A stretch of DNA of 64,000 bases from Verrucomicrobiota bacterium (GTDB lineage Bacteria; Verrucomicrobiota; Verrucomicrobiia; Limisphaerales; SXTU01), in the NCBI GenBank assembly GCA_039796295.1, contig JBDKJY010000037.1, positions 2,199-66,198 on the forward strand. The letters are read 5' to 3'. The position numbers and the translations under genes are program-made. Below are positions 11,815 through 63,539 of the stretch, piece after piece (position 1 is the stretch's first letter; each line of letters starts with the position of its first letter). The notes beneath the pieces are model-generated. The model ran no database searches and was not told the DNA's origin. It worked only from the letters and a program-made list of their open reading frames with translations.

Positions 11815-12173
11815 AGCGCGGAGGCTAGCGGGCGGAGCGGAGGGAACCAAGCTGTAACGTGGCGCGCGGGTGTGTCGCCGACCAGCCGCAGCCTTCCCGC
11901 CCTCCCGCAATCATCGCTCAACGCAGACTAGCCAGAGGTGAGCACCTGCTGCGACTGGTGCCGCGCGCACAGTCGGCCTCGGTTCCGTTTGCTGTTCGGG
12001 GGCAAGGCTGGCGCTGCGGCCACGGAACCGTGCGTGGCAGGAAACGCTTTGCTTCGGCCACCTCGTTATACAGAATCCGCCACCCGATGAACGACGCCTC
12101 TCCCACCCTCGCTGCCACGCTAGGCGGGGGGGGCTGAACCGCAGCGGCTTCCTCTTTGCCCACCGCCCCACCC

Positions 12174-13214
12174 ATGAGCCACGTCAGCGACTACTTCCAA
12201 ACCCTCGGCCAGACAATGGCCAGCCAGCTCGGCGACCACCCCGAGCCGGACAGTGTCTTCGCGGCCATCGCCACCGATGTGTTAAGCGCGGTGCCTGCGC
12301 CCCCGATTGACGTTCTGGCGATGGCGGACTGGGCCGGGCAACAAGATCCGCTCCCCAAGCAGGTCAACTTCAAGTCTGGCTTCGGTCAGCCGCCGCTGGT
12401 GGTCTTCGTGGCCCCCGGCTTCTACATCGAGGTGCTCTTCTGGTTCCCCAGCCGCACCGGCATCCACGGGCACGGGTTCACGGGCGCGTTCCGGGTGCTG
12501 AACGGTTGCTCGGTCCAGGTCGAATACCGGTTCCTCGAGGAGTCCGCCCCGGAGGAGGGACTGCGGCTCGGTAAGCTGGTCGCGCAGGGGATCGAGATGG
12601 TCGCGCCGGGCAAGGTGTGTTCCATCCTGGGCCGGGATGACTTCATCCACTGCGTCGCGCATCTGGGCAACCCCTCCCTCACGCTGGTGGCCCGCACCTA
12701 CGGCAGCAAGGACCTGCGGCAATTCTCCTTCCATCGGTGCGGCTTTGCCCTCCGGGCGAAATACCAGCAGCAGACCATGGAACGGCAGGCGGCGGTGCTG
12801 GCGGCGGTGTTCAAGGCCCGCCCGGCGGCCTTCAGAGAACGGCTCCTGGCCTATCTCGCCGCCACCGACTGCGCCGCCTGCTATGCCGTCCTGAGTGAAC
12901 TCAAGTCCCTCCTCGCCTTTCCCGTGTTCACCAAGCAGGTGCTGCCCGCCGTCCGGGAGCGCTTCGGGGCCACCCACGCGCCCGCACTGGCGGCCCTCGA
13001 CGAGGACGTTCGCTCCAACGGCATCTGGGGCCTGATCGGTAAGCTCAACGATCCCCGGCAGCAGCTCCAGCACGCCCTCACCGAGCTATTCCCCGACGAG
13101 CGGGAACGCGATGCCCTCATCTGCCAATCCCTCGGCGTGGCGGATGCCCAGCCGGTGTTAGCGGAATGGTTGCGGATCGCCGAACAGTCCTCTGCTCCGC
13201 CGGCCACTGGTTGA
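12174..13214 (+). CDS. hypothetical protein, cupin-like N-terminal half
   Basis: ORF 12156..13214 (TTG); ATG at 12174. GIHGHGFTGAFRVLNGCSVQVEY resembles a metal-binding double-stranded beta-helix motif. The C-terminal half is helical. Convergent with the cyclase gene. Confidence 0.6.
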   Translation: MSHVSDYFQTLGQTMASQLGDHPEPDSVFAAIATDVLSAVPAPPIDVLAMADWAGQQDPLPKQVNFKSGFGQPPLVVFVAPGFYIEVLFWFPSRTGIHGHGFTGAFRVLNGCSVQVEYRFLEESAPEEGLRLGKLVAQGIEMVAPGKVCSILGRDDFIHCVAHLGNPSLTLVARTYGSKDLRQFSFHRCGFALRAKYQQQTMERQAAVLAAVFKARPAAFRERLLAYLAATDCAACYAVLSELKSLLAFPVFTKQVLPAVRERFGATHAPALAALDEDVRSNGIWGLIGKLNDPRQQLQHALTELFPDERERDALICQSLGVADAQPVLAEWLRIAEQSSAPPATG

Positions 13215-13243
13215 GACTCGCCGGGCCGGGGTGCCCCAGCGCG

Positions 13244-15181
13244 CTAGCCTTCCACAGCCTGCTTCCCCGCGCGCCCCTGCTCCTGCTGCCAGAGCGTCAA
13301 CGCGGCCAGTGCGTGGCGCACGGTGAGGGTGGGCGGGTGCTTCAGGGCTTCGCGCAGACGGACCGTGTCCACCCACGGGTTGGGCTGGCACAGGCGCTCA
13401 TGCACCGCCGCCAAGGGCTTCGCCTCCTGCCGCTCCTTCTGCCGCTCCGCCAGCGCCGGGTCCTGCTTCACCGAATCCCACGGGACGGCTGGGGGGAAGA
13501 GCTTGCTCGTCGCATGCCGATACAGCACCCGACCCTGACCCGGCTGGTAATGCAGCTCCGGCGGCACGCCATACACGAACTCCAGCACCCGCCGGTCGGT
13601 CAGCGGGTAGGCATACGTCAGCCCGTGTTCCGCTCCGAAGGCCGCCCACGACTCCATCCGCGCCGTGACATGGCCGTGGTAATAGAGCGCCGCCTGGCAT
13701 CTCCGGCTCCCCGGCACCTCCCGCACGTGCGGCACGTCCGTGCGCAGGTGCGGGCGGATGCGCTCGGCGAACTCCACTCGGATAAACGGCTCGCCCCGCT
13801 TACTGCGCGCCTGCCGATACGCCAGCCGCTCCCACAGCGCGGCCGGCAACGTGGGCAGCACCGCACTATCCCAGAACGCCCGCAGCGCCACCAACGCCAG
13901 CCCCGGGCGACGCCACGCGCGCCCCAGCCCCAGATACCCCGCCAGCGCCCCCCACTCTCCGCGCACCAGATAATCCGCCGCCAACCCCCGCCCATTGTAG
14001 CTCACCCCTTCATCCCCGCCCCAACCCGACAGCATCAGCCCGACCCCTTGCGCCGCCGCGCGCACTTGCACCGACCGCTCCAGCCCCATCGTCAGCGCCG
14101 GCCGCAGGGAGATGTCCAGCTCCGCCATCCAGCGCTCATCGTCATCGGTGGCCTCCGTGTAGAGCGGCGTCAACCCCTCCTGCTGGCAGATGGCCACAAT
14201 GCGCCGGTGCTCCGTCTCCTCTGGCTTGGACCCCGGCGGTGGGGACCAGGAGAACATCGTGGGCACCGCCGCCCCGCGCTGCCGCTGGAGCCGCGCCGCC
14301 AGCACCGCCACCGACGATGAATCCAGCCCCCCGCTGAGGTGAGCCCCCACCGGCAGCCGCGTCCGCAAGCAATCCCCTACCGCCCGCTCCACCAGCGCGT
14401 AAAGCTGCTCCACATAGTCGGCGTGCCGCGCCAGCCGCACATCCGGCAGCCGCTCGGGGAACCAATACCGCGCCACCCGCAACCCCCGGTCATCCACCGT
14501 CAGCGTGTGGCCGAATGGCAGCTTGCGCACGCCCCGGTAGTAGGTGCGGACATTGTCATGCGCCCCCGGAGACAGGTTCAACAGCAGCCACCCCACCTCC
14601 ACCTCATCCAGCTCCCGCCGCACCCCGGGGATGGCGAGCAAGGCCGGCAAGTCCGTGGCGAAGGCGAACTCCCGCTCCGTGTGCCAGTAGAACAGTGGGC
14701 GTGCTCCGATGTGATCCCGCGCGAGGAACAGCCGCCGCGCCCCCGCATCCCAGACGGCGAAGGCGTAATCCCCCACCAGATGCTCCGTGCAGCCCTCCCC
14801 CCACCGCTCCCACGCCCGCAGCAACAGCGCCTCATCCGACACCATCGCGCGTTCCGCCGACGGCACGTCCAGCGCGGCGCACAGCTCCGGCCGTCCATCC
14901 AGCCGCGCATCCGCCACGACGGTCAAGGGTCCACGGGTGAGGATGGCAGTTTCCGGTAGGGCCGCGCTGTGCGCGGTCTTGTCTTCCTCCGGCCGTCCAC
15001 AGGACGGCCCTACCGCCTCCGGCGTGAAGTGCTGCACCTGGCAGCCGAGGGCGATGGGACCGCTGCTCCACAGGCCACGCGCATCCCGGCCATACTGCTC
15101 CATCAGGGACAGGGCAGGGGAGAGGGCCGCTGGGGAGACCGGCGCACCGTCCAGCCGGAACAGCCCGGCAATGGCACTCAT
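13244..15181 (-). CDS. asparagine synthetase-like lasso peptide cyclase (C protein) candidate
   Basis: 645-aa ORF. ATP-PPase motif HLSGGLDSS is present, but the N-terminus MSAIAG lacks the Cys2 glutaminase nucleophile. Compare the true AsnB at 33962..35878, which starts MCAITG. The start overlaps the PqqD stop (ATGA, 15178-15181). Confidence 0.8.
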   Translation of the reverse strand: MSAIAGLFRLDGAPVSPAALSPALSLMEQYGRDARGLWSSGPIALGCQVQHFTPEAVGPSCGRPEEDKTAHSAALPETAILTRGPLTVVADARLDGRPELCAALDVPSAERAMVSDEALLLRAWERWGEGCTEHLVGDYAFAVWDAGARRLFLARDHIGARPLFYWHTEREFAFATDLPALLAIPGVRRELDEVEVGWLLLNLSPGAHDNVRTYYRGVRKLPFGHTLTVDDRGLRVARYWFPERLPDVRLARHADYVEQLYALVERAVGDCLRTRLPVGAHLSGGLDSSSVAVLAARLQRQRGAAVPTMFSWSPPPGSKPEETEHRRIVAICQQEGLTPLYTEATDDDERWMAELDISLRPALTMGLERSVQVRAAAQGVGLMLSGWGGDEGVSYNGRGLAADYLVRGEWGALAGYLGLGRAWRRPGLALVALRAFWDSAVLPTLPAALWERLAYRQARSKRGEPFIRVEFAERIRPHLRTDVPHVREVPGSRRCQAALYYHGHVTARMESWAAFGAEHGLTYAYPLTDRRVLEFVYGVPPELHYQPGQGRVLYRHATSKLFPPAVPWDSVKQDPALAERQKERQEAKPLAAVHERLCQPNPWVDTVRLREALKHPPTLTVRHALAALTLWQQEQGRAGKQAVEG

Positions 15182-15465
15182 GCCGTCACCGTCTGGATGT
15201 GCAGCAGCTTGTCCGTGTGAAGCTGGGTGAGGAAGGCCAGCACCTCCCGCTCACACACCGCCGGGTCCACCTCGAACTCCGACTGGAGCTGGGTGACCAG
15301 CTCGCTCACCCGACACGGCTGTTCCACCGCCGCCCACACCCGAGTGGCCATGCGGTTCATCTGGTAGTATTCCCCATTCTCGATGCTCAGGAGCACGGCC
15401 TGCTCATCCAGCGTGCCGGAGATCAGCTCAGGGGCACGGACCACGGTGGAGGTAGAGAATATCAT
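15178..15465 (-). CDS. PqqD family RiPP recognition element (lasso B1/E-type chaperone)
   Basis: ORF 15178..15600; start moved to ATG 15465, giving 95 aa. Typical PqqD pattern: GTLDEQAVLLSIENGEYYQMNRMATRVWAAVEQPCRVSELVTQL. Translationally coupled to the cyclase. Confidence 0.85.
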   Translation of the reverse strand: MIFSTSTVVRAPELISGTLDEQAVLLSIENGEYYQMNRMATRVWAAVEQPCRVSELVTQLQSEFEVDPAVCEREVLAFLTQLHTDKLLHIQTVTA

Positions 15466-15553
15466 AGCGGCATGCAAAGTAAGGGGCAGCAGGTGAGGGT
15501 CAAGTCGGAACCCGGCCACACAGGCGACGGAGCGCGGGCGGTGGGTAGGGCTT

Positions 15554-15640
15554 GGAGTCCCGGCTTCAGCCGGTGGAGCCGTCCGGTTCACCTGTGCCAC
15601 GCGTGCGCGCTGCCGGCTAAAGCCGGGACTCCAAACGGGG
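15554..15640. repeat. 87-nt structured element, copy 1 (20-bp inverted arms GGAGTCCCGGCTTCAGCCGG / CCGGCTAAAGCCGGGACTCC)
   Basis: Near-identical copy at 17684..17770. The arms are complementary apart from one mismatch. Lies between the precursor A1 stop and the PqqD start. Confidence 0.8.
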
Positions 15641-15698
15641 GGCGGGCTGCGGACGCGGGGACCGCAGTCCGGGGGGGCGAACGCGGGCTGCGGTAGTG

Positions 15699-15854
15699 CT
15701 AGGAAGGGGGGGCCGCAGTGCTACGAGAGGTCTCCCTAGTAAAGGAATTTTTTTCCGTCCCCTCGGCAAGGTCGAGGGGCAGTAGCAGCGGCGTCTCCCA
15801 AGGGAGCTTGGCGGCGGGGGCTGGCGGGGCGGGGGATGCTGATTCGGTTTGCAT
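15699..15854 (-). CDS. lasso-type precursor peptide paralog A1 (51 aa, below the ORF-track cutoff)
   Basis: Hand translation of the minus strand: MQTESASPAPPAPAAKLPWETPLLLPLDLAEGTEKNSFTRETSRSTAAPPS, stop TAG. The leader is shared with three paralogs. Lies immediately upstream of the PqqD and cyclase genes. Confidence 0.7.
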   Translation of the reverse strand: MQTESASPAPPAPAAKLPWETPLLLPLDLAEGTEKNSFTRETSRSTAAPPS

Positions 15855-15863
15855 GGCGGCGGG

Positions 15864-15894
15864 AGAGTAGTGGGGGGGGGCGGAGGGCTGTCAA
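15864..15894 (-). promoter_or_regulatory. sigma70-like promoter candidate for A1 (TTGACA-19 nt-TACTCT, 9 nt to ATG)
   Basis: Minus strand has TTGACA (15894..15889) and TACTCT (15869..15864). The spacer contains a G9/C9 run. The module is conserved upstream of all four precursor ORFs. Confidence 0.45.
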
Positions 15895-16102
15895 CGGGAG
15901 AGGGTGGCCCAAGCGCACCGGAGCGCGGGTAGGGCGCGGTGTCCTCCCCGCGCCGCCGAATGGGGAGTGGCATCCGGTTGGCCCACGGCAAGGGGAGGCC
16001 ACCCCGCCCTACCTGCTCCCGGCTGCGGCCAGGCGCAGCTCAGTATTTTGCACGGCCAGGTGGGGATGGTGAATTCGTTGCTCACAAAACGTCGCGCGTC
16101 TT

Positions 16103-16245
16103 CACCCTCACCCCGGCCCTCTCCCTCCAAGGGAGAGGGAGAGCGCTTTACGCCGGCTCGTGCTTCCGAGCACGCCCTTTCGCCGCAGCGCGGCCTGCGT
16201 GGCTCCCTCTCCCAGCGGGAGAGGGCTGGGGTGAGGGAGAACGGC
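16103..16245. repeat. inverted pair of 'GEGRGEG-type' elements (CTCACCCCGGCCCTCTCCC..GGGAGAGGG)
   Basis: 16103-16145 and 16204-16245 are reverse complements of each other and flank about 60 bp. The same family occurs at 19261-19390, 28207-28333, 37623-37668, 46321-46362, 49150-49190 and 49296-49338. Confidence 0.8.
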
Positions 16246-16380
16246 TCCGAGTGCAGAACCGGGTTGCAGGAAAGTAATATGCGCCCCTGCGGCCCATCCC
16301 TTCATTAAGGCGTTGACAAACCAACCCCGTTTCGATAGAGAAAAACCGTCCACACAATCTGAACCGAACCAATCCAAGCT

Positions 16381-17073
16381 ATGCCCTTCAAATACATCCA
16401 AGTTCCGAACACCAAAGACCCGAACAAATCCTCCACCCGCGCCGCCCTGGGCGACCCCGTAAGCGAAGCCGAGTTCTTCGCCTACATGGCCATCCTCCTC
16501 AGCAAACCGCCTGCCGATTGCGAAGCGGCCTTCAATGCGTTGCTGGATACCTGTGTCCACTTCGCCCGGGATACCCGCGCCACCAGCTACCTGCATGGCC
16601 GCCTGCGTATGCAACCCTCCAGCGGCGGCAGCTTCGAGACCGGCACCACCCCGCACTCCCCCAAGGACATCGGCGCGCGTATGAACCTCAGCCTCGGACC
16701 TGATACCGTCGCCGCCTTCGAGGACGACCTGAGCATCGAGAAGGTGGGCGAGGAAGGGGTGCGCGCCCCGCAGATTGACCGCGTGATAGACAACCGCACC
16801 GGGGACACCGATAAATACACGGCCTCCGATGTGCTGGAGGTGGACGGGGAGCACTTCGAGATCGACCCGACGGACACCGCGCAAGGGGTCTTCCTCACCC
16901 CGGTGGCGAGCGGTTCGGCTGTGCGCATCACCCGTTACCTGAGCGTCACGCCTACCCGCATCGAAGTGCTGCTGCCGGCCGGCCTCACCGGCCAGCAACG
17001 CCTCATGGTGGTGTGCAAGTATGACACCAGCCCCCTGCGCTCCAGCACTTACACCAGCGCCCTCAGCCCGTAG
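16381..17073 (+). CDS. HU-like DNA-binding N-terminal domain plus DUF4469-like Ig-fold C-terminal domain protein
   Basis: 230-aa ORF. The C-terminal pattern IDRVIDNRTGDTDKYTASDVLEVDGEHFEIDPTDTAQGVFL...RIEVLLPAGLTGQQRLMVV resembles Bacteroidetes HU/DUF4469 proteins. On the opposite strand to the surrounding RiPP genes. Confidence 0.5.
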   Translation: MPFKYIQVPNTKDPNKSSTRAALGDPVSEAEFFAYMAILLSKPPADCEAAFNALLDTCVHFARDTRATSYLHGRLRMQPSSGGSFETGTTPHSPKDIGARMNLSLGPDTVAAFEDDLSIEKVGEEGVRAPQIDRVIDNRTGDTDKYTASDVLEVDGEHFEIDPTDTAQGVFLTPVASGSAVRITRYLSVTPTRIEVLLPAGLTGQQRLMVVCKYDTSPLRSSTYTSALSP

Positions 17074-17259
17074 GGTCACCCTCCGCCGGTCTGACCCCCA
17101 CCCTCCGCACCACCGAGGGTCACCCTCGCGACGCCGTAGGGTCACCCTCCGACGAGCTGAGGGTCACCCTCCATGAGTCTGAGGGTCACCCTCGTTACGA
17201 CTGAGGGTCACCCTCGTGACGGCTGAGGGTCACCCTCCGCGCGGCTGAGGATGACCCTT
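17071..17259. repeat. tandem array: 9 units at an exact 22-bp period of the 13-bp palindrome GAGGGTCACCCTC
   Basis: Units start at 17071, 17093, 17115, 17137, 17159, 17181, 17203, 17225 and 17247. Five are perfect GAGGGTCACCCTC, two are TAGGGTCACCCTC, and two are degenerate. Spacers are variable 7-mers followed by CT. Confidence 0.95.
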
Positions 17260-17423
17260 GGGGCAGCGCAGGGCTACGTTTGGAATGCACGTGGGGTGCG
17301 GGGCCATCGCCGCACCGCCTTGGTCTGGTGGAATTCAAGTGGCAGACGGCGGGGTGAGGACACCCGCGCTACTGGGAGGTCATTAGGCGAAGGGCCTAGC
17401 CGCCGGTAGGGCAGCGCTTGCGT

Positions 17424-17619: not shown

Positions 17620-17683
17620 CGGAGGAGGCAGGCCCAAGCGGTGCGGAGCGCAGACGCCTCCATCCGCAGGCGGGTTGTGGCTG

Positions 17684-17770
17684 GGAGTCCCGGCTTCAGC
17701 CGGTGGAGCCGTCCGATTCACCTATGCCACTCGTGCGCGCTACCGGCTAAAGCCGGGACTCCAAACGGGG
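17684..17770. repeat. 87-nt structured element, copy 2
   Basis: More than 90 percent identical by eye to 15554..15640. Lies between the precursor A3 stop and the A2 promoter module. Confidence 0.8.
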
Positions 17771-17938
17771 CGACGGCGGGTTGCGTTCTCCCTCACCGCC
17801 TACCGACTCAGATGCTGGGGGACTGCGTCCCGCAGGGGCTCCGATGGGGGGAGTCGTAACCTAGGCAAGTCCGACCGTTGCTACGGGTCGCAGACCGGCG
17901 CTGCAAGCGCAGCGTTCAGTGCACCGGCGGCGGGCGGC

Positions 17939-18106: not shown

Positions 18107-18134
18107 AGAGTAGCTGGGGGGGGCGGGCTGTCAA
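18107..18134 (-). promoter_or_regulatory. sigma70-like promoter candidate for A3 (TTGACA-16 nt-TACTCT, 9 nt to ATG)
   Basis: TTGACA (18134..18129) overlaps the oxygenase stop codon (18131-18133). The spacer holds a G8/C8 run. Confidence 0.45.
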
Positions 18135-18787
18135 TTGATCGGAGCGCGGGCGTGGGGAGGGCGCTGCGGCTTGACCTTGTCCGCCTTGAGGTGGGCATAG
18201 GGGCCGTCCGCCCGGACGTAGTGCAGGAAGGTCTGGATCATCTCGGTGCCGGTGAAGGGCTCACGCCAATGGGGGCGCTCGATGCCCTGGTAGACCAAAC
18301 CATCCCCCGCCGCGAGGTGGGCGGGCACGGCTTCCCCGGTAGGCGTCTCCACATACAAAGGCCAAGGCACCTGCGGATCGGGCTGGAGGGCGAGGGAGAG
18401 GCTGATTTCGCAGGCGGGGCGGTCCGTGTGCCGGGCCAGCACGGCCCCCGGCTCGTAGATGCGCATGAAGGAGTAGGTAGGCAGGAGCCGGTGGCCGGTG
18501 AGCTGCTCAACCTGCGGGAGCAACCGTAGGAGGAGGTCCTCCGTGACGAGGTTCTTGTAGGCGACGGTGGCCGCTGTCACCGCTCCTTCGCCCCGGCGCA
18601 GGAGGTTGTGGGCCTTCATGGTCTTCAAGTCGGCGGCGGCCTTGGCGCAGACGGCGGCGGGCAGCAAGCCACGGGCGATGAGATAGCCGTGGGTGGCGAA
18701 GGCGTGGGCGGTGTCCACCGGAGCGGGAGGGGATGAAGGGGGACTGCTGGTGGGGGTCTGAGGTGCGCGGGGGGGTGGCGGTGGCAT
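18131..18787 (-). CDS. Fe(II)/2-oxoglutarate-dependent oxygenase
   Basis: ORF 18131..19195; start moved to ATG 18787 (MPPPPPRAPQ..), because the upstream part reads through precursor A4 and repeats. The HxD...H triad is visible: ARHTDRP and ERPHWREP. Confidence 0.75.
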   Translation of the reverse strand: MPPPPPRAPQTPTSSPPSSPPAPVDTAHAFATHGYLIARGLLPAAVCAKAAADLKTMKAHNLLRRGEGAVTAATVAYKNLVTEDLLLRLLPQVEQLTGHRLLPTYSFMRIYEPGAVLARHTDRPACEISLSLALQPDPQVPWPLYVETPTGEAVPAHLAAGDGLVYQGIERPHWREPFTGTEMIQTFLHYVRADGPYAHLKADKVKPQRPPHARAPIN

Positions 18788-18891
18788 CGGGCTCACGATG
18801 CAGCGGACTTTCCGCGTGGGAAGGACTAGCGTCAACCGGGAATCCGGACCCCAGACCCGCAGGCTGAAGGGGCGGACACGACCTGCTTGGA

Positions 18892-19260: not shown

Positions 19261-19390
19261 GGATTCTCTCCCAGCGGGAGAGGGACAGGGTGAGGGAGAA
19301 CGGCTAGGAGTCGTAGCGGGGAGGGATGTCTCCAGACCTCGCTGCCATTCTCCCTCACCCCAGCCCTCTCCCGCTGGGAGAGGGAGGCAG
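19261..19390. repeat. MITE-like unit bounded by an inverted pair of GEGRGEG-type elements
   Basis: 19264-19305 and 19346-19385 are reverse complements of each other (about 40-bp terminal inverted repeats). Confidence 0.75.
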
Positions 19391-19442
19391 GCAGGCCGCT
19401 TCAGTGTTAGCGAGGCGCTGGGGACACCTGGCCTTGCGTAGC

Positions 19443-20305
19443 TCAGTGCACCGGTTGGCCGGTGGCATCCAGGTAGCCATACTGGCGCATGACGTCGGCG
19501 TGGTCGGCGATGACGCGGGCGGCTTGCTCGGGGGTGAGGGCGTCGCGCCAGGAGCCGATGCTGCCCCGGCGGAAGAAGGCCTTGGCCTTGGGGAGGCGCT
19601 CCCGGAAGCCGCCGGCTTGCTCCTGCCGCTGGAGTTCCTCAAAGCGGCTGAACTCGATGGCCTTGCGGATGCGCTCGGGGTCGTCGGGCAGGCCGAGGAA
19701 GCGCACGGCGGTGGTGAAGGTGGCTTCGGGGGTGAGCTTCATGTCCTCGTAGCGGATGACTTGCACGCGGAGGCCGGGGGCGGTGGCCCAACTGGTGACG
19801 TGGCGGCTCCAGGAGAGGAGGCGCTGGCGGAGCTGGTTCGGCTCGGTGGCATCGCTGACGGCCACGCAGGCGTCGGGCTTGCCCAGCAGCTTGACGGAGC
19901 GCTCGTAGTCGGTGCTGCCGCCATGAGCGGCGTAGGAGACGGCGACGTCCAGGGGGTTACGGATAAAGTAGAGGGCGGCCTCGGTGGCCTCGGGGGGCAG
20001 GAGGGGGCGGCCGTCGGGCAGGAAGGTGTAGGCGTCGTGGCACTTGCAGTAGAGGGTCTCCTTGGCCTGGCGGGCGAGGTGGAGATAGACCTCGGGGCGG
20101 AGGGCGTCGGCCTCGTCGGGGGTCAGCTCGCCGGAGTCGTAGCCGACGGCGTTGTCGAAGGGGGCGCGGGCGCTGGAGATGGGGCCGCCGTCGAGGGCAT
20201 TGATGTCGGCGGGCTGGGGGCATCCCGGAGGAAGTTGGTGAGGAAGGTGCGGAACCAAGTGTTACCGGACTTGGGGTAGGAGGCGAGCCAGACGATGCGC
20301 TTCAT
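19443..20305 (-). pseudogene. sulfotransferase, split by a 1-nt frameshift (pseudogene or homopolymer sequencing error)
   Basis: The PAPS 5'-PSB motif MKRIVWLASYPKSGNTWFRTF (ATG 20305) is in one frame. The rest, including the 3'-PB-like IRNPLDVAVSY, is ORF 19443..20258 in another frame. Reading the G5 run at 20216-20220 as G6 gives a continuous ..FLRDAPQPADINALDGGPI.. Confidence 0.8.
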
Positions 20306-20318
20306 GGCGGGCGATGGC

Positions 20319-21256
20319 TCAGGGGCGGAAGTCGGCTTCGAGGCGGTCCACCAGCTCGGTGAGGCGGAAGGCGCCCTCGGGCCGGGTGACGCGGGTGACG
20401 GTGGCCTGCTGGGCGAGGGCCAGGGCGGCGCGGAAGTGGGCGGGCTTGGCGGCGAGGCCATCCACGAAGTGGAAGCGGTAGGTCTGCTGCTTGAGGGCGT
20501 TGAGGCGCTGGGGGCCTTCGACGGAGGTGAGCTGGAGGTCGGGGTCGTTAGTGGCGCGGAGGAGGTAGAGCTTGCGCACCGGGAGGGGGACGGTGGCGAA
20601 GGCGGTGCCCAGGGGGACGGCGCGCTTCTCCAGCGCGGGCCGGATGCGCTGGAGGCCATCGGGTGCGAGGTCGAATTGCTTGAGGGAGTCCAGCCAGAGC
20701 TTGGCATGGGGGAGGCCGGGGTGGAGGACGAGGCGGCCGGTGGCATCCGGGCGGATGGCACAGACGTCGTCGGTGAGGACGGGGTAGCCGCGGCGCTGGC
20801 AGGCGATGGCGGTGGTGGACTTGCCGACACCGGAGATGCCGAGGAAGGCAACGCAGGTATCACCCGTGGCGATGGCGCTGCCGTGGAGGACGAGGTCACC
20901 GCGTTGGTGGAGGAGGGCGGCGAAGGCGGAGCCGTAGAGGAAGAGGCGGACGTCCTCGGGGTCCGCACCGGGCGGGGACTCGATGACGATGCGCCGGCCG
21001 TCCGCGATGAGGAAGCGGGCGATGCCGTCCACGATGAGGAGGAGCTGGCCGGGGGCGGCTTGATAGCGGACGCCACGGTCGGTGGCTCCGGGGAGTTCGG
21101 TGGGGACAGGGCCGGTGAGGATCTCGACGTCGGCGGGGCCATCGGTGGAGGCGGGGGAAGCTCGGGGAGGGGCAGGGTGGAGTGGATGCGCAGGCCGTAG
21201 GCTTGGTGCTGGGGCGGTGGGGGCGGTGGGTTGTCTGTAGTTTCTGGGTCGGCCAT
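20319..21256 (-). pseudogene. HPr kinase-like (HprK-related) peptide kinase, split by a 1-nt frameshift (pseudogene or sequencing error)
   Basis: The N-terminus MADPETTDN..QAYGLRIHSTLPLPELP (ATG 21256) is in one frame. The body, with the P-loop FLGISGVGKSTTA, is in the frame of ORF 20319..21365. Reading the G5 run at 21153-21157 as G6 gives ..LPELPPASTDGPADVEILTG.. Confidence 0.65.
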
Positions 21257-21359
21257 GCGGAGCTACCGTTAGCATGAGGCGGAGGGTGATGTCGAGGGAG
21301 GGGGAGGGCGGGTGAGGATTGGCTGGCCTTGGCGAGGGTGGATTCCCCATGCTGAGGGG

Positions 21360-22487
21360 ATGCAATGGCTTGTGCCGGAACCGGAGTGGCTGGGGGCGTT
21401 ACCCACGGATGTGGCGGCGCATGTGCGGCAACTGGCGGCGTTACCGGGCTTCCCCCGGCACTTGGCCCGGTATAGCGCCGTGCTCAAGAAGCTGAACGAG
21501 AAGCACACTGGCTCGGCCAAGGTGCTGGCCGAGCAGGCGTGGCGGCTGGGGGGCCAGGACCCGGTGGTCCGCCAACACGCGCACTGGGCGATCAGCAAGC
21601 GGGTGCCGGGCTGGCACTTCGGGATCATCAACGACGACGCGCGGAATGCCATCTACCAGGCGGCGCTGAACCGGCATGTGCGTCCGGGGATGATCGTCTT
21701 CGAGGTGGGGACGGGGACGGGCATTCTCGCCATGCTGGCGGCGCGCGCCGGCGCGGCGCATGTCTATACGTGCGAGATGGAGCCGTTGCTGGTGGAGGTG
21801 GCGCGGGAGAACATCGCGCGGAACGGGCTGACGGAGCGGGTGACGGTGATTCCCAAGCGGTCGGACAAGGTGGAGTTGGGCGTGGACCTGCCGGAGCGGG
21901 CGGACCTCTTCGTGGCGGAGATCGTGGATAATGGCCTGCTGGGCGAGGAGGCGCTGGGCATCACGGCGGACGTGCAGGCGCGGCTGCTCAAGCCTGGGGC
22001 GGTGTTGGTGCCCGATCAGATCGAACTGCGCGGGACGCTGGTGGGCGGGCCGTTGGCGAGCCGGGCGTTCCGGGCGCGGCCGGCGTGTGGGCTGGATGTC
22101 TCGGCGCTGGACCGGCTGGGGTCGGGGGTGGTGCAAAGTCCGGCGGGGCTGGAGACGGACCTGGCGGAGGACGTGGTGGCGCTGCACTTCGATCTTGCGC
22201 AGGCGGGAAGTTACCGGACGGCGCAGACGAGCGTGGCGGTGCAGGGGCTAAGGGACGGTGAGGCGGAGGGTTTCCTGAGCTGGATCTGGCTGCGCTTCGG
22301 CGAGGGGCTGGAATACACGAACCGTCCGCCGACGGTCAGTTGCTGGGGTCCGCGCATTCACGTGTTCCCCACGCCCATGCCAGTGACGGCCGGCCACCTG
22401 GTGACGATGCAAGTGCAGCACGACTGCAAGCGGGTGAACATCTGGTCGGAGGCCGGTGGGGCCGGGGTAGGGGAACCGGCAGCGTAA
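21360..22487 (+). CDS. class I SAM-dependent methyltransferase, protein arginine N-methyltransferase (PRMT)-like
   Basis: ORF 21312..22487; ATG 21360. HFGIINDDARNAIYQAALNRHVRPGMIVFEVGTGTGILAMLAARAGAAHVYTCE matches the PRMT pre-motif I and motif I layout. ADLFVAEIVDNGLLGEEAL resembles the PRMT double-E loop region. Confidence 0.65.
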   Translation: MQWLVPEPEWLGALPTDVAAHVRQLAALPGFPRHLARYSAVLKKLNEKHTGSAKVLAEQAWRLGGQDPVVRQHAHWAISKRVPGWHFGIINDDARNAIYQAALNRHVRPGMIVFEVGTGTGILAMLAARAGAAHVYTCEMEPLLVEVARENIARNGLTERVTVIPKRSDKVELGVDLPERADLFVAEIVDNGLLGEEALGITADVQARLLKPGAVLVPDQIELRGTLVGGPLASRAFRARPACGLDVSALDRLGSGVVQSPAGLETDLAEDVVALHFDLAQAGSYRTAQTSVAVQGLRDGEAEGFLSWIWLRFGEGLEYTNRPPTVSCWGPRIHVFPTPMPVTAGHLVTMQVQHDCKRVNIWSEAGGAGVGEPAA

Positions 22488-22512
22488 ACGCAGGGCGGGG
22501 GTGCCGCCGCAC

Positions 22513-23619
22513 TCACCGCACGCGGACGAAGACCTTGCCGGGCAGTTGCCGCACCATCCGCTTCATCTCCAGACTCAGCAGCCCCACCGAGACGGCGGAC
22601 GCTGGCAGGCCGCTGGCGCGGATGACTTCGTCCATGTGCGCCTCCTCGTGCGTCACGACGGCGAGGATTTTGGTTTCGTTCTCCGAGAGGGACAGCCCCG
22701 GCAGCACGCCGGTCTCGCCGGGGGAGGGCGGCTTGTTCGAGGCGGGGAACAGATACTCGAACTCGCTCAAGATGTCCTCCGCGCCCTCGCAGAGCTTCGC
22801 ACCTTTCTTGATCAGGTCGTGGCAGCCCTTGCTGCGCGGCGAGTCAATCCGCCCGGGCACGGCGAAGACCTGGCGGCCGTAGTCCGTGGCGAAGTTCGCC
22901 GTGATGAGCGCGCCGCTGCTGAGGTTCGCCTCGACGACGACGGTGCCCAGCGTCATGCCCGCGACGATGCGGTTGCGGATGGGGAAGGACTGCTTGTCCG
23001 CCGGGCGGTTGAACGGGAACTGCGAGACAACCGCGCCACTCGCCGCGATGCGTTGGAACAGCTCTGCGTTCTCGGGCGGGAAGACCAAGTTAATGCCCGT
23101 GCCCAAGACCGCGACCGTGCGGCCCTTCGCCGCCAGCGCGCCCTGGTGCGCCGCCGTGTCAATCCCACGCGCCCCGCCGCTCACCACCGTGACGCCGATG
23201 TAGGCGAGTTGGTAGCCGAGCTTGCGCGCCGTCTCGACGCCGTAACTGGTGGTCTGACGCGAACCGACGAGCGCGACGGAGTGCTTGTCCTGTGCGGTGA
23301 GCGTGCCCTTCACGTAGAGCACGATGGGCGGGTCGTAGATTTGCCGGAGCGACTCGGGATACTCCGGGTCCTCCTGCGTGAGCACGTGGCAGCCGTAGTC
23401 CGCGATACGCTTCAGCTCGCCGCTCAGGTCAACGCCACTCTCCCAGTCGGCAATCGCGTCCGCCGTCTCCGCGCCGATGCCGCGCACCTGCTGGAGCTGC
23501 TGCTGGTTCGCGCGCAAGATGGTCGGCGCGTCGCCGAAGTGGTCGAGCAGTTGCCGGACGCGCACCGGGCCGACGTGCTCAATCAAGTTGAGGGCGATGA
23601 ACGCTTCCTTGGAGGTCAT
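22513..23619 (-). CDS. dprA: DNA-processing protein DprA/Smf
   Basis: ORF 22513..23928; start moved to ATG 23619. VALVGSRQTTSYG, SGGARGIDTAAHQGAL and FPIRNRIVAG motifs are typical of DprA. Confidence 0.9.
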   Translation of the reverse strand: MTSKEAFIALNLIEHVGPVRVRQLLDHFGDAPTILRANQQQLQQVRGIGAETADAIADWESGVDLSGELKRIADYGCHVLTQEDPEYPESLRQIYDPPIVLYVKGTLTAQDKHSVALVGSRQTTSYGVETARKLGYQLAYIGVTVVSGGARGIDTAAHQGALAAKGRTVAVLGTGINLVFPPENAELFQRIAASGAVVSQFPFNRPADKQSFPIRNRIVAGMTLGTVVVEANLSSGALITANFATDYGRQVFAVPGRIDSPRSKGCHDLIKKGAKLCEGAEDILSEFEYLFPASNKPPSPGETGVLPGLSLSENETKILAVVTHEEAHMDEVIRASGLPASAVSVGLLSLEMKRMVRQLPGKVFVRVR

Positions 23620-62659: not shown

Positions 62660-62842
62660 GGAGCGCCGATCATCGCTCGGCATGAGGGCACGAACACCCG
62701 TCGGGCCGAGCAATACTCGGCGCTCCGGGGATGGGGGGGGGGCGTCCGATGGGCGGCGCTCCGGCGGGTGGAGCGCCAAGCATTGCTTGGCCGGAGTGCG
62801 ATGTGCTTCACTTCACCCGTGCCGAGCGATGCTCGGCGCTCC
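62660..62842. repeat. two REP doublets immediately upstream of the RAYT gene
   Basis: REP copies at 62660-62681, 62705-62726, 62770-62791 and 62821-62842, in alternating orientation. The last one ends 1 nt before the RAYT ATG. Confidence 0.9.
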
Positions 62843-62843
62843 G

Positions 62844-63539
62844 ATGAACGCGAACCGGCCACCACTCACGAAGCGGCAATACCTGCGCGAGTTGGTTTCC
62901 GAGAAGAACAAGTGGGATGAACCGCTGTCGGACCCCGACAAGGCCAACGGCTTCCTCGGCTGGCACGAGCGCGGTTATCTGCCGCACTGCGACAAGCCCG
63001 GCCTCGTGCAACTCGTCACGCTTCGCCTTGTCGATTCACTTCCCGCCTCCCGTCGCGGCGAGTGGGAACACTTGCTCAAGATTGAGGACACCCGCGAGCG
63101 GCGGACAGAACTGGAATCCTACCTCGACCGCGGCGTCGGCGAATGCTGGCTCCGCGACGCGCGTGTCGCCGCCTGCATGGAACAGTCGATGCGGTTTCAT
63201 CACGGCGAGCGTTACGAATTGCTGGCTTGGTGCGTGATGCCGAACCATGTCCATGTGCTCGTCCACGTCTGGGATTGGCCGTTGGCGAAGACGCTTCAAA
63301 ACTGGAAATCCATCGCAGCAGTCAAAACCAACCGCATCCTCGGTCGCAGCGGTTCATTCTGGCAGCGCGAGTATTGGGACACTTTCATGCGAAGCACTGA
63401 GCAGGAGAAGACGGCCATTCGTTACGTGGAGAGCAATCCAATGAAGGCGAAGCTGTGTCGAGCGGCAGAAGATTGGCCGTTCAGCAGTGCGCGATTCCGC
63501 GACGGGTATCGGCGGCTGGTTTTGCCTCTGAAGACATAG
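62844..63539 (+). mobile_element. REP-associated tyrosine transposase (RAYT, IS200/IS605 TnpA-like Y1 HUH enzyme)
   Basis: ORF 62682..63539; ATG 62844 gives 231 aa. HUH motif VMPNHVHVLV and catalytic Tyr region FWQREYWDTFMRS. Flanked on both sides by REP doublets. Confidence 0.85.

Follow-up and report, generated by a model that had tools for sequence, protein, structure and literature searches.

A probable recent loss of the kinase and sulfotransferase tailoring genes from a lasso-peptide cluster of a Verrucomicrobiota bacterium

Introduction

Lasso-peptide gene clusters of the paeninodin type encode an HPr-kinase-like P-loop protein beside a PqqD-family protein and a cyclase (PadeK/ThcK; Zhu et al., 2016, as cited in PMC8498205). 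In such clusters, the HPr-kinase homologues act on the linear precursor, whose C-terminal Ser they phosphorylate; putative sulfotransferase genes have also been mentioned at the beginning of some of these clusters and are uncharacterised (PMC8498205). Here, a related cluster is described from a Verrucomicrobiota bacterium, on a stretch of 64,000 nucleotides (nt) that is referred to as the window (positions 2,199 to 66,198 of contig JBDKJY010000037.1, assembly GCA_039796295.1). At the head of this cluster, which lies entirely on the minus strand, a kinase gene comes first and is followed after a 13-nt spacer by a sulfotransferase gene, and the reading frame of each is broken by a one-base lesion. 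Although sequencing error and functional switching have to be weighed, the lesions are best read as a real and recent loss of a dispensable tailoring module consisting of these two genes, with a probability of roughly 0.75.

Two adjacent genes broken by single-base lesions

Translation of the minus strand reveals that the kinase and the sulfotransferase each switch frame at a five-base C run. Sulfotransferase translation opens at the ATG at 20305 with MKRIVWLASYPKSGNTWFRTFLTNFLRDAP in the first frame, and the remainder (QPADINALDGG...YFIRNPLDVAVSY) continues to the stop at 19443 in a frame displaced by one base. Similarly, the kinase starts with the ATG at 21256 and reads MADPETTDNPPPPPPQHQAYGLRIHSTLPLPELPP in its first frame, while ASTDGPADVEIL...FLGISGVGKST...LEADFRP, ending at the stop at 20319, lies in a frame displaced by one base. 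The kinase would thus be truncated after approximately 35 codons, beyond which translation is out of frame, whereas the break after codon 30 of the sulfotransferase parts its PKSGNTW motif from RNPLD and the remaining fold. A preliminary description of this DNA, made from its letters alone, had placed these two motifs, as well as the N-terminal segment and the P-loop body of the kinase, in different frames, and both separations are evident in the minus-strand translation. No uninterrupted sulfotransferase frame holding both motifs was found, and the change of frame after codon 30 is the same in two further assemblies.

When each of the two GGGGG runs of the plus strand (21153-21157 and 20216-20220) is given one more G, the result is an unbroken kinase of 312 amino acids (aa) and an unbroken sulfotransferase of 287 aa, with zero other stops or insertions and deletions in either gene. 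The proposal that both genes are mended by lengthening these runs by one base therefore holds, the products being gap-free against intact homologues. It could also be established that the N-terminal pieces belong to the downstream bodies, since the homologue alignments are gap-free at the repair sites and the two halves of the sulfotransferase match the same chain in the Protein Data Bank (PDB).

The two lesions also create a spurious open reading frame (ORF) of 377 aa (20123..21256, minus strand), as the kinase and sulfotransferase start codons share a frame. It is composed of the kinase N-terminus, a Pro/Ser/Ala-rich out-of-frame stretch, the sulfotransferase N-terminus and further out-of-frame sequence, and gene callers could take it for a genuine protein. 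Mutual compensation of the two frameshifts was considered and ruled out, this ORF being out of frame nearly throughout.

Identity of the repaired proteins

The assignment of the two genes in the preliminary description, as a sulfotransferase and a P-loop HPr-kinase-like kinase, is upheld by Pfam, PDB and homologue matches. The repaired sulfotransferase scores 80.4 bits (cut-off 22) against Pfam PF00685 (Sulfotransfer_1), with residues 5-273 covering profile positions 4-251 of 255. PKSGNTW (residues 11-17) and RNPLDVAVS (residues 116-124) fall in columns that are invariant in the sulfotransferase alignment; we take PKxGxTW to be the 5'-phosphosulfate-binding loop and RNPxD...S to be the 3'-phosphate-binding region. 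Homologues retrieved from a search of 5.8 billion protein clusters, which also served for the kinase, are almost all exactly 287 aa in length and up to 94% identical, and they align with the repaired protein with 0 gaps in 287 columns. Furthermore, the 30-residue N-terminus is near-identical to that of homologue P0121, and the repaired junction, DAPQPA, is found verbatim in relative P0123. The closest solved structures are those of TEG12, Teg14 and StaL, with the N-terminal 30 residues and the body matching one chain.

The repaired kinase aligns over its full length with 11 homologues, among which GISGVGKST and the following TDD are invariant. Full-length homologues number in the hundreds; the closest are 314-315 aa long and 85-92% identical, the wider set spans approximately 300-315 aa, and the repaired junction, ELPPA, occurs verbatim in relatives P0001-P0003. 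Similarity to described kinase families is distant: the match to Pfam Hpr_kinase_C is weak (21.7 bits, under the cut-off of 33.3), while a profile built from the kinase alignment detects the HPr kinase structure 1ko7 with E = 9e-5 over the P-loop region. The protein falls outside NCBIfam HprK_rel_A (TIGR04352) and HprK_rel_B (TIGR04355), with 23.6 bits for the former and 25.7 bits for the latter where 200 are required, and forms a distinct subfamily. Some of its homologues bear the precomputed Pfam annotation PF27840 'ScmC', a name that is explained via the NCBIfam entry 'SynChlorMet cassette protein ScmD'. A scan of JGI metagenomes with the repaired kinase returned one distant locus (74% identity), which is uninformative on the state of the allele.

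Intact relatives and the nature of the lesion sites

Comparison with closely related assemblies, including a scan of species-representative genomes (28 relatives), places the interrupted pair among intact ones. All close relatives retrieved (L002/L012, GCA_964496695.1; L003-L005; L006/L013, GCA_964578245.1; L007-L009) have intact kinase-sulfotransferase pairs, each gene in a single frame and with other bases at the lesion sites. The two genes are adjacent in every relative inspected, and the same contigs recur in both homologue lists. DNA alignment with L002, L005, L006 and L009 gives CTC CCG CCC, CTC CCC CCC or CTT CCG CCC at the kinase site, while codon 30 of the sulfotransferase is GAC, GAG or CCA in relatives. 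Since the relatives carry other bases at these positions, the missing base lay in or next to the C run and was not necessarily a C. Hence, the claim of a 1-nt deletion in a G5/C5 run stands as to the loss of one base and its position, but a change in homopolymer length (G6 to G5) is unproven, G or A being present there in relatives.

These alignments bear directly on the view that the tracts are reversible switches. Phase variation would alternate the length of the C tracts between 5 and 6 bases by slippage, thereby toggling phosphorylation and sulfation of the lasso peptides within the population; short homopolymers are the commonest slippage sites, two OFF states occur in one operon, and the genes are otherwise undamaged, all of which would suit such a mechanism. 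However, the tracts measure only 5 bases (6 if repaired), and those of contingency loci are usually well longer than 5-6 bases. The tracts are also not conserved (relatives have CCG CCC at the kinase site and GAC, GAG or CCA at the sulfotransferase site), which argues against a designed switch. Moreover, the exact repaired proteins are absent from approximately 15 billion proteins, including assemblies of the runs that carry this population, so that no ON allele was encountered and only OFF alleles are seen, in three assemblies. With a sister lineage, described below, having lost the module by an irreversible deletion, phase variation is considered very unlikely.

Programmed recoding, in which tRNA-Pro shifting by -1 on C CCC, or slippage during transcription, would still deliver full-length enzymes, has in its favour that a single-tRNA -1 slip at each site gives, as read from the sequence, the homologue-like ELPPAST and DAPQPAD. 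Nevertheless, all close homologues inspected are encoded in one frame, so the frameshift is not conserved; neither site reads as a canonical X XXY YYZ heptamer, and the emergence of two unconserved recoding sites in one lineage is not expected. Recoding is accordingly hardly credible. That the C tracts are functional in either sense, whether by switching reversibly at a low rate or by serving as sites of -1 recoding, is likewise given very little chance; if true, the population would toggle or titrate the phosphorylation and sulfation of a four-member lasso-peptide library while keeping the genes.

Loss of the module is also documented in a sister lineage, assembled twice independently (L045, ENA ERZ28574192; L046, Logan SRR3568955), from which the whole kinase and the first 90-100 or so codons of the sulfotransferase have disappeared. 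Nucleotide homology resumes at approximately codon 102, and the last 190-200 or so codons of the sulfotransferase remain, with 89% nucleotide identity to the window. In place of the lost part (L045 1887-5952, L046 118-4183) stand three unrelated genes, which encode proteins of 165, 798 (BNR/glycosylhydrolase-like) and 338 aa and lie between the retained methyltransferase gene and the sulfotransferase remnant; a precursor gene is retained as well. Taken with the frameshifts in the window, this deletion indicates that the module has been lost repeatedly in the clade and by different mechanisms.

Among the relatives, one metagenome-assembled genome (MAG), CAZCBE01 (GCA_964496695.1), has two kinase loci (L012 and L021, 86% and 52% identical to the query) in paralogous clusters. 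By analogy, the source MAG could have a second, intact module outside the window.

Real lesions or sequencing errors

The window belongs to a Verrucomicrobiota MAG, in which it occupies a contig of 66,238 bp that is also present in JGI/IMG; the 271-aa sulfotransferase fragment is deposited as MEN9575822.1 (RL514_3677) and the cyclase as MEN9575818.1 (RL514_3673). Separately assembled Logan contigs reproduce the lesions exactly. One of them (L010/L043, run SRR35181981) is 100% identical without gaps to window positions 19360-23337 (3,978 nt) and covers both five-base tracts, and another (L044, run SRR35626833) is 100% identical without gaps to positions 19360-21095, covering the sulfotransferase tract and ending 58 nt short of the kinase tract. 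Homopolymers elsewhere in the window appear to be called correctly: L040 (SRR35181981) and L041 (SRR35626834), each a 100% match to the window, contain its G10 run (62733-62742) unchanged, which argues for reads with accurate homopolymer calls. Intact genes of the window (50 kb) contain 63 G/C runs of five bases, 10 of six and one of seven, all in frame, and the 11 coding runs of at least six bases thus speak against a general undercalling of 6-mers.

These observations weigh against a sequencing or assembly artefact, according to which the genes are intact in the organism and the chemistry or the polishing of the consensus dropped one base from each C/G run. So does the fact that the lost position is often G or A, not C, in relatives, and that no other long gene of the window shows a frame switch. 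The latter was judged from a frame plot of the GC content at third codon positions (GC3), which is blind to short N-terminal truncations; home-made GC3 detectors of frame switches were noisy, flagging antisense frames and true junctions and missing both known sites, whose N-terminal pieces are 30-35 codons long. In line with the preliminary description, the other long ORFs, including those of 1120, 908 and 900 aa, are present and uninterrupted. The check for an excess of homopolymer frameshifts that it had proposed for the whole assembly was carried out within the window, and there no other affected long gene was detected. At 55.7-58.5 kb, alternating minus-strand frames were considered as a further candidate, but the region resolves into five small genes, each separate and intact, among them homologues of hisI and hisF as judged from the look of their sequences.

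Several points nevertheless tell against real lesions and in favour of an artefact. The G5/C5 runs at which the lesions occur are located in the 2 kb of the window that have the highest GC content and the strongest G skew (GC 0.70, GC skew 0.31). Of the 78 coding G/C5 runs, 15 fall in the 1.8 kb of the two broken genes, as compared to 63 in the 50 kb of intact genes, which makes the pair the likeliest place for homopolymer errors (or mutations). The genes otherwise look functional, and an adjacent pair of lesions with no other damage and a low ratio of nonsynonymous to synonymous substitution rates (dN/dS) is also what two local errors are expected to produce. The source is a MAG; support for the lesions comes from assembled contigs as opposed to reads or platform data; the kinase lesion is seen in only one run besides the MAG; and the MAG may itself have been built from the runs behind the Logan contigs, in which case the agreement would be independent of the assembler and not necessarily of the library. 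In addition, the intact allele could persist as a minority of the population. On balance, an artefact is regarded as unlikely, and the reading of the frameshifts as a genuine loss is retained.

That loss appears to be recent. For the kinase, dN/dS is 0.17-0.22 between the repaired gene and relatives, as against 0.15-0.18 between intact pairs; the corresponding values for the sulfotransferase are 0.11-0.29 and 0.09-0.20. Low dN/dS together with the lack of further stops, insertions or deletions implies that the lesions are recent, and they are young relative to the dS of approximately 0.3 that separates the lineages. Since the pair always occurs together as one operon, loss of one gene plausibly relaxes selection on the other, which would explain the adjacent hits. 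Thus, of the three explanations that the preliminary description had left open, inactivation is favoured by the recurrent contigs, the intact cluster, the low dN/dS and the sister deletion, while homopolymer error is disfavoured and switching is unsupported.

The surrounding lasso-peptide cluster

The designation of the two genes as tailoring genes of one locus is fair, given that the pair heads a lasso-peptide cluster (Table 1). Its other genes are undisturbed in frame with respect to relative L006, the PqqD protein being 88% identical, the cyclase 77%, the protein of unknown family 91% and the methyltransferase 86%. The cyclase matches NCBIfam lass_lactam_cya with E = 1.3e-94 (318 bits, under the strict cut-off of 525), and the exact protein is also encoded in Logan contig L001; the chaperone scores 79.3 bits against lasso_PqqD_Bac (cut-off 80). 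The cyclase, PqqD protein and Ser-ending precursors lie beside the kinase both in the window and in L006, whereas the gene calls of L009 include, of these, just the cyclase and one precursor ending in Ser. The cluster family is widespread in MAGs of Verrucomicrobiota/Opitutaceae and Bacteroidales.

Table 1. Features of the lasso-peptide cluster and positions of the two lesions in the window
Feature	Position	Strand	Remarks
Lasso isopeptide-forming cyclase (asparagine-synthase-like), 645 aa	13244..15181	-	Intact; Pfam Asn_synthase and GATase_7
PqqD-family lasso chaperone (B1/RRE), 95 aa	15178..15465	-	Intact; Pfam PqqD; 88% identical to L006
Lasso precursor gene 4, 51 aa	15699..15854	-	Putative core KNSFTRETSRSTAAPPS
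Lasso precursor gene 3, 52 aa	17424..17582	-	Putative core KTVITAVEQLTRSSGPAS
Lasso precursor gene 2, 52 aa	17939..18097	-	Putative core SGPVPQSTEIGTAFGPVS; repeat family D1
Conserved cluster protein, no family, 223 aa	18131..18802	-	Intact; start codon uncertain; 90.6% identical, gap-free, to 191-aa gene of L006
Lasso precursor gene 1, 51 aa	18892..19047	-	Leader MQTAPASPAP..KLPWETP; putative core KTFTFYRESGPRSGPAS
PAPS (3'-phosphoadenosine 5'-phosphosulfate)-type sulfotransferase gene	19443..20305	-	Frameshifted after codon 30; repaired 287 aa; Pfam Sulfotransfer_1
Sulfotransferase lesion	20216..20220	-	Coding-strand C5, GAT GCC CC- CAG; codon 30 one base short
HPr-kinase-like (HprK-related) lasso-peptide kinase gene	20319..21256	-	Frameshifted after about codon 35; repaired 312 aa
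Kinase lesion	21153..21157	-	Coding-strand C5, CTT CC-CCC GCC; one base fewer than relatives
SAM (S-adenosylmethionine)-dependent methyltransferase (PrmA-like)	21360..22487	+	Divergent; intact; adjoins kinase in relatives too

All four precursor genes are open frames that encode a common leader (MQTAPASPAP…KLPWETP…T-x), divergent cores and a C-terminal Ser. When inspected by eye, the four precursors of the window and nine from relatives share a register in which T-x precedes the core (Thr at -2) and core position 7-9 is E (D in L009). Homologues of precursor gene 1, of 51-52 aa, are called in L002, L006 and L009, and L006 has seven precursor genes (12087-16130) with hypervariable cores, a C-terminal Ser and Glu at core position 7-9. 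Should the Thr(-2) register be correct, Lys is the first residue in three of the four cores of the window and in roughly half of all 13 that were inspected, which is unusual for lasso peptides, as these usually start with Gly, Ala, Ser or Cys.

Recognisable candidates for two functions were searched for and not found. No Pfam or NCBIfam match to a B2 (transglutaminase-like) leader peptidase was obtained among the ORFs scanned at 12-23 kb or the 191-, 312- and 423-aa genes of L006; the peptidase may be encoded elsewhere or may be too divergent for detection. Likewise, neither the cluster of the window nor that of L006, flanks included, has a recognisable ATP-binding cassette (ABC) exporter. The conserved protein at 18131..18802 has no match in Pfam, NCBIfam or PDB sequence searches, and its provisional assignment as a 2-oxoglutarate/Fe(II) oxygenase, suggested by an HxD...H pattern, was dropped for this reason. 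Two conserved neighbours are also without family match (window 12156-13214, plus strand, 352 aa; L006 19050-19988, 312 aa).

Repeats and other features of the window

Several repeats lie within or near the cluster. A tandem array at 17072-17291, of approximately ten units with a 22-nt period, combines a conserved palindromic core, (G)AGGGTCACCCTC, with approximately ten variable bases; it directly follows a DUF4469 gene (16381-17073, plus strand), itself located between two precursor genes, and may serve as a series of binding sites for a protein. An inverted repeat resembling repetitive extragenic palindromic (REP) elements lies immediately downstream of the sulfotransferase; its 39-nt arms (19266-19304 and 19344-19382; CTCTCCCAGCGGGAGAGGG...) are 90% complementary and enclose a 39-nt loop, and a related copy is present at 16190-16251. 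Logan contigs L010 and L044 both break at 19360, inside this element, which suggests that it is repeated in the genome. Furthermore, a 99-nt direct repeat (15549-15647 and 17679-17777, 92% identical), with a hairpin of its own (GGAGTCCCGGCTTCAGCCGG...CCGGCTAAAGCCGGGACTCC), occurs close to two of the precursor genes and could function in both places as a regulatory element or a terminator.

At the far end of the window, the segment 61000-64000 has a lower GC content (0.58-0.60), a 404-aa ORF without family match and an IS200/Y1-transposase-like ORF (62682-63539), the 5' region of which contains the G10 run mentioned above. Identical contigs of this segment occur in three runs of the Sequence Read Archive, and it may be a mobile element.

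Proposed course of the loss and its implications

Extrapolating from relatives and the literature, the kinase of intact clusters would phosphorylate the C-terminal Ser of every precursor, and the PAPS-type sulfotransferase would add a further modification. In this population, a single base, inside a C run or adjoining it, was probably lost from each of the two genes, which thereby became recent pseudogenes, while the core machinery of four precursors, PqqD chaperone and cyclase has been kept. The products of the cluster, if it is still active, would therefore be untailored.

For annotators, the loss would mean that two public calls of 'hypothetical proteins', one of 271 aa and one of 237/318 aa, represent halves of a broken sulfotransferase and of a broken kinase, respectively, and for genome miners, that phosphorylated or sulfated products are not to be expected from this cluster. 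One clade also offers a natural series in which the tailoring module is intact, frameshifted or deleted, which suggests that the core lasso pathway can do without the kinase and the sulfotransferase. The cluster family itself is of more interest than its pseudogenisation, as it unites a kinase and a sulfotransferase with 4-7 hypervariable Ser-ending precursors and no recognisable B2 protein, and is uncharacterised.

Comparison with known systems

The cluster resembles those of the paeninodin type in that Ser, the residue phosphorylated by the PadeK/ThcK kinases, ends every precursor of the window. It differs in its kinase, which is far under the HprK_rel_A/B cut-offs, and in its Verrucomicrobiota host, as well as in having four precursor genes (seven in L006), no recognised B2 protein or ABC exporter, and a frameshifted kinase and sulfotransferase. 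With the sulfotransferases of glycopeptide antibiotic tailoring (TEG12, Teg14 and StaL; PDB 3mg9, 3nib and 2ov8), the window enzyme has the PKxGNTW loop and the RNPxD region in common, and these too are single-domain enzymes of approximately 290 aa that tailor a peptide natural product. However, the sequences are only distantly alike (E = 1e-14, with parts of the protein aligned), the window gene is interrupted after codon 30, and its substrate is presumably a ribosomal lasso precursor.

As regards the lesions, homopolymer-tract contingency loci likewise carry a frameshift at a G/C homopolymer in the 5' part of the coding sequence, but the tracts of the window are 5-6 bases long, unconserved among relatives and without a detected ON allele. 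The closest parallel is provided by ordinary frameshift pseudogenes in decaying accessory clusters, which show the same single-base deletions at short homopolymers, with intact orthologues in near relatives and outright deletion in a sister lineage. Pseudogenes of this kind are routine in the accessory clusters of MAGs, and nothing substantive sets the present case apart from them; its only notable feature is that both genes of one module were hit while the core genes of the cluster are intact.

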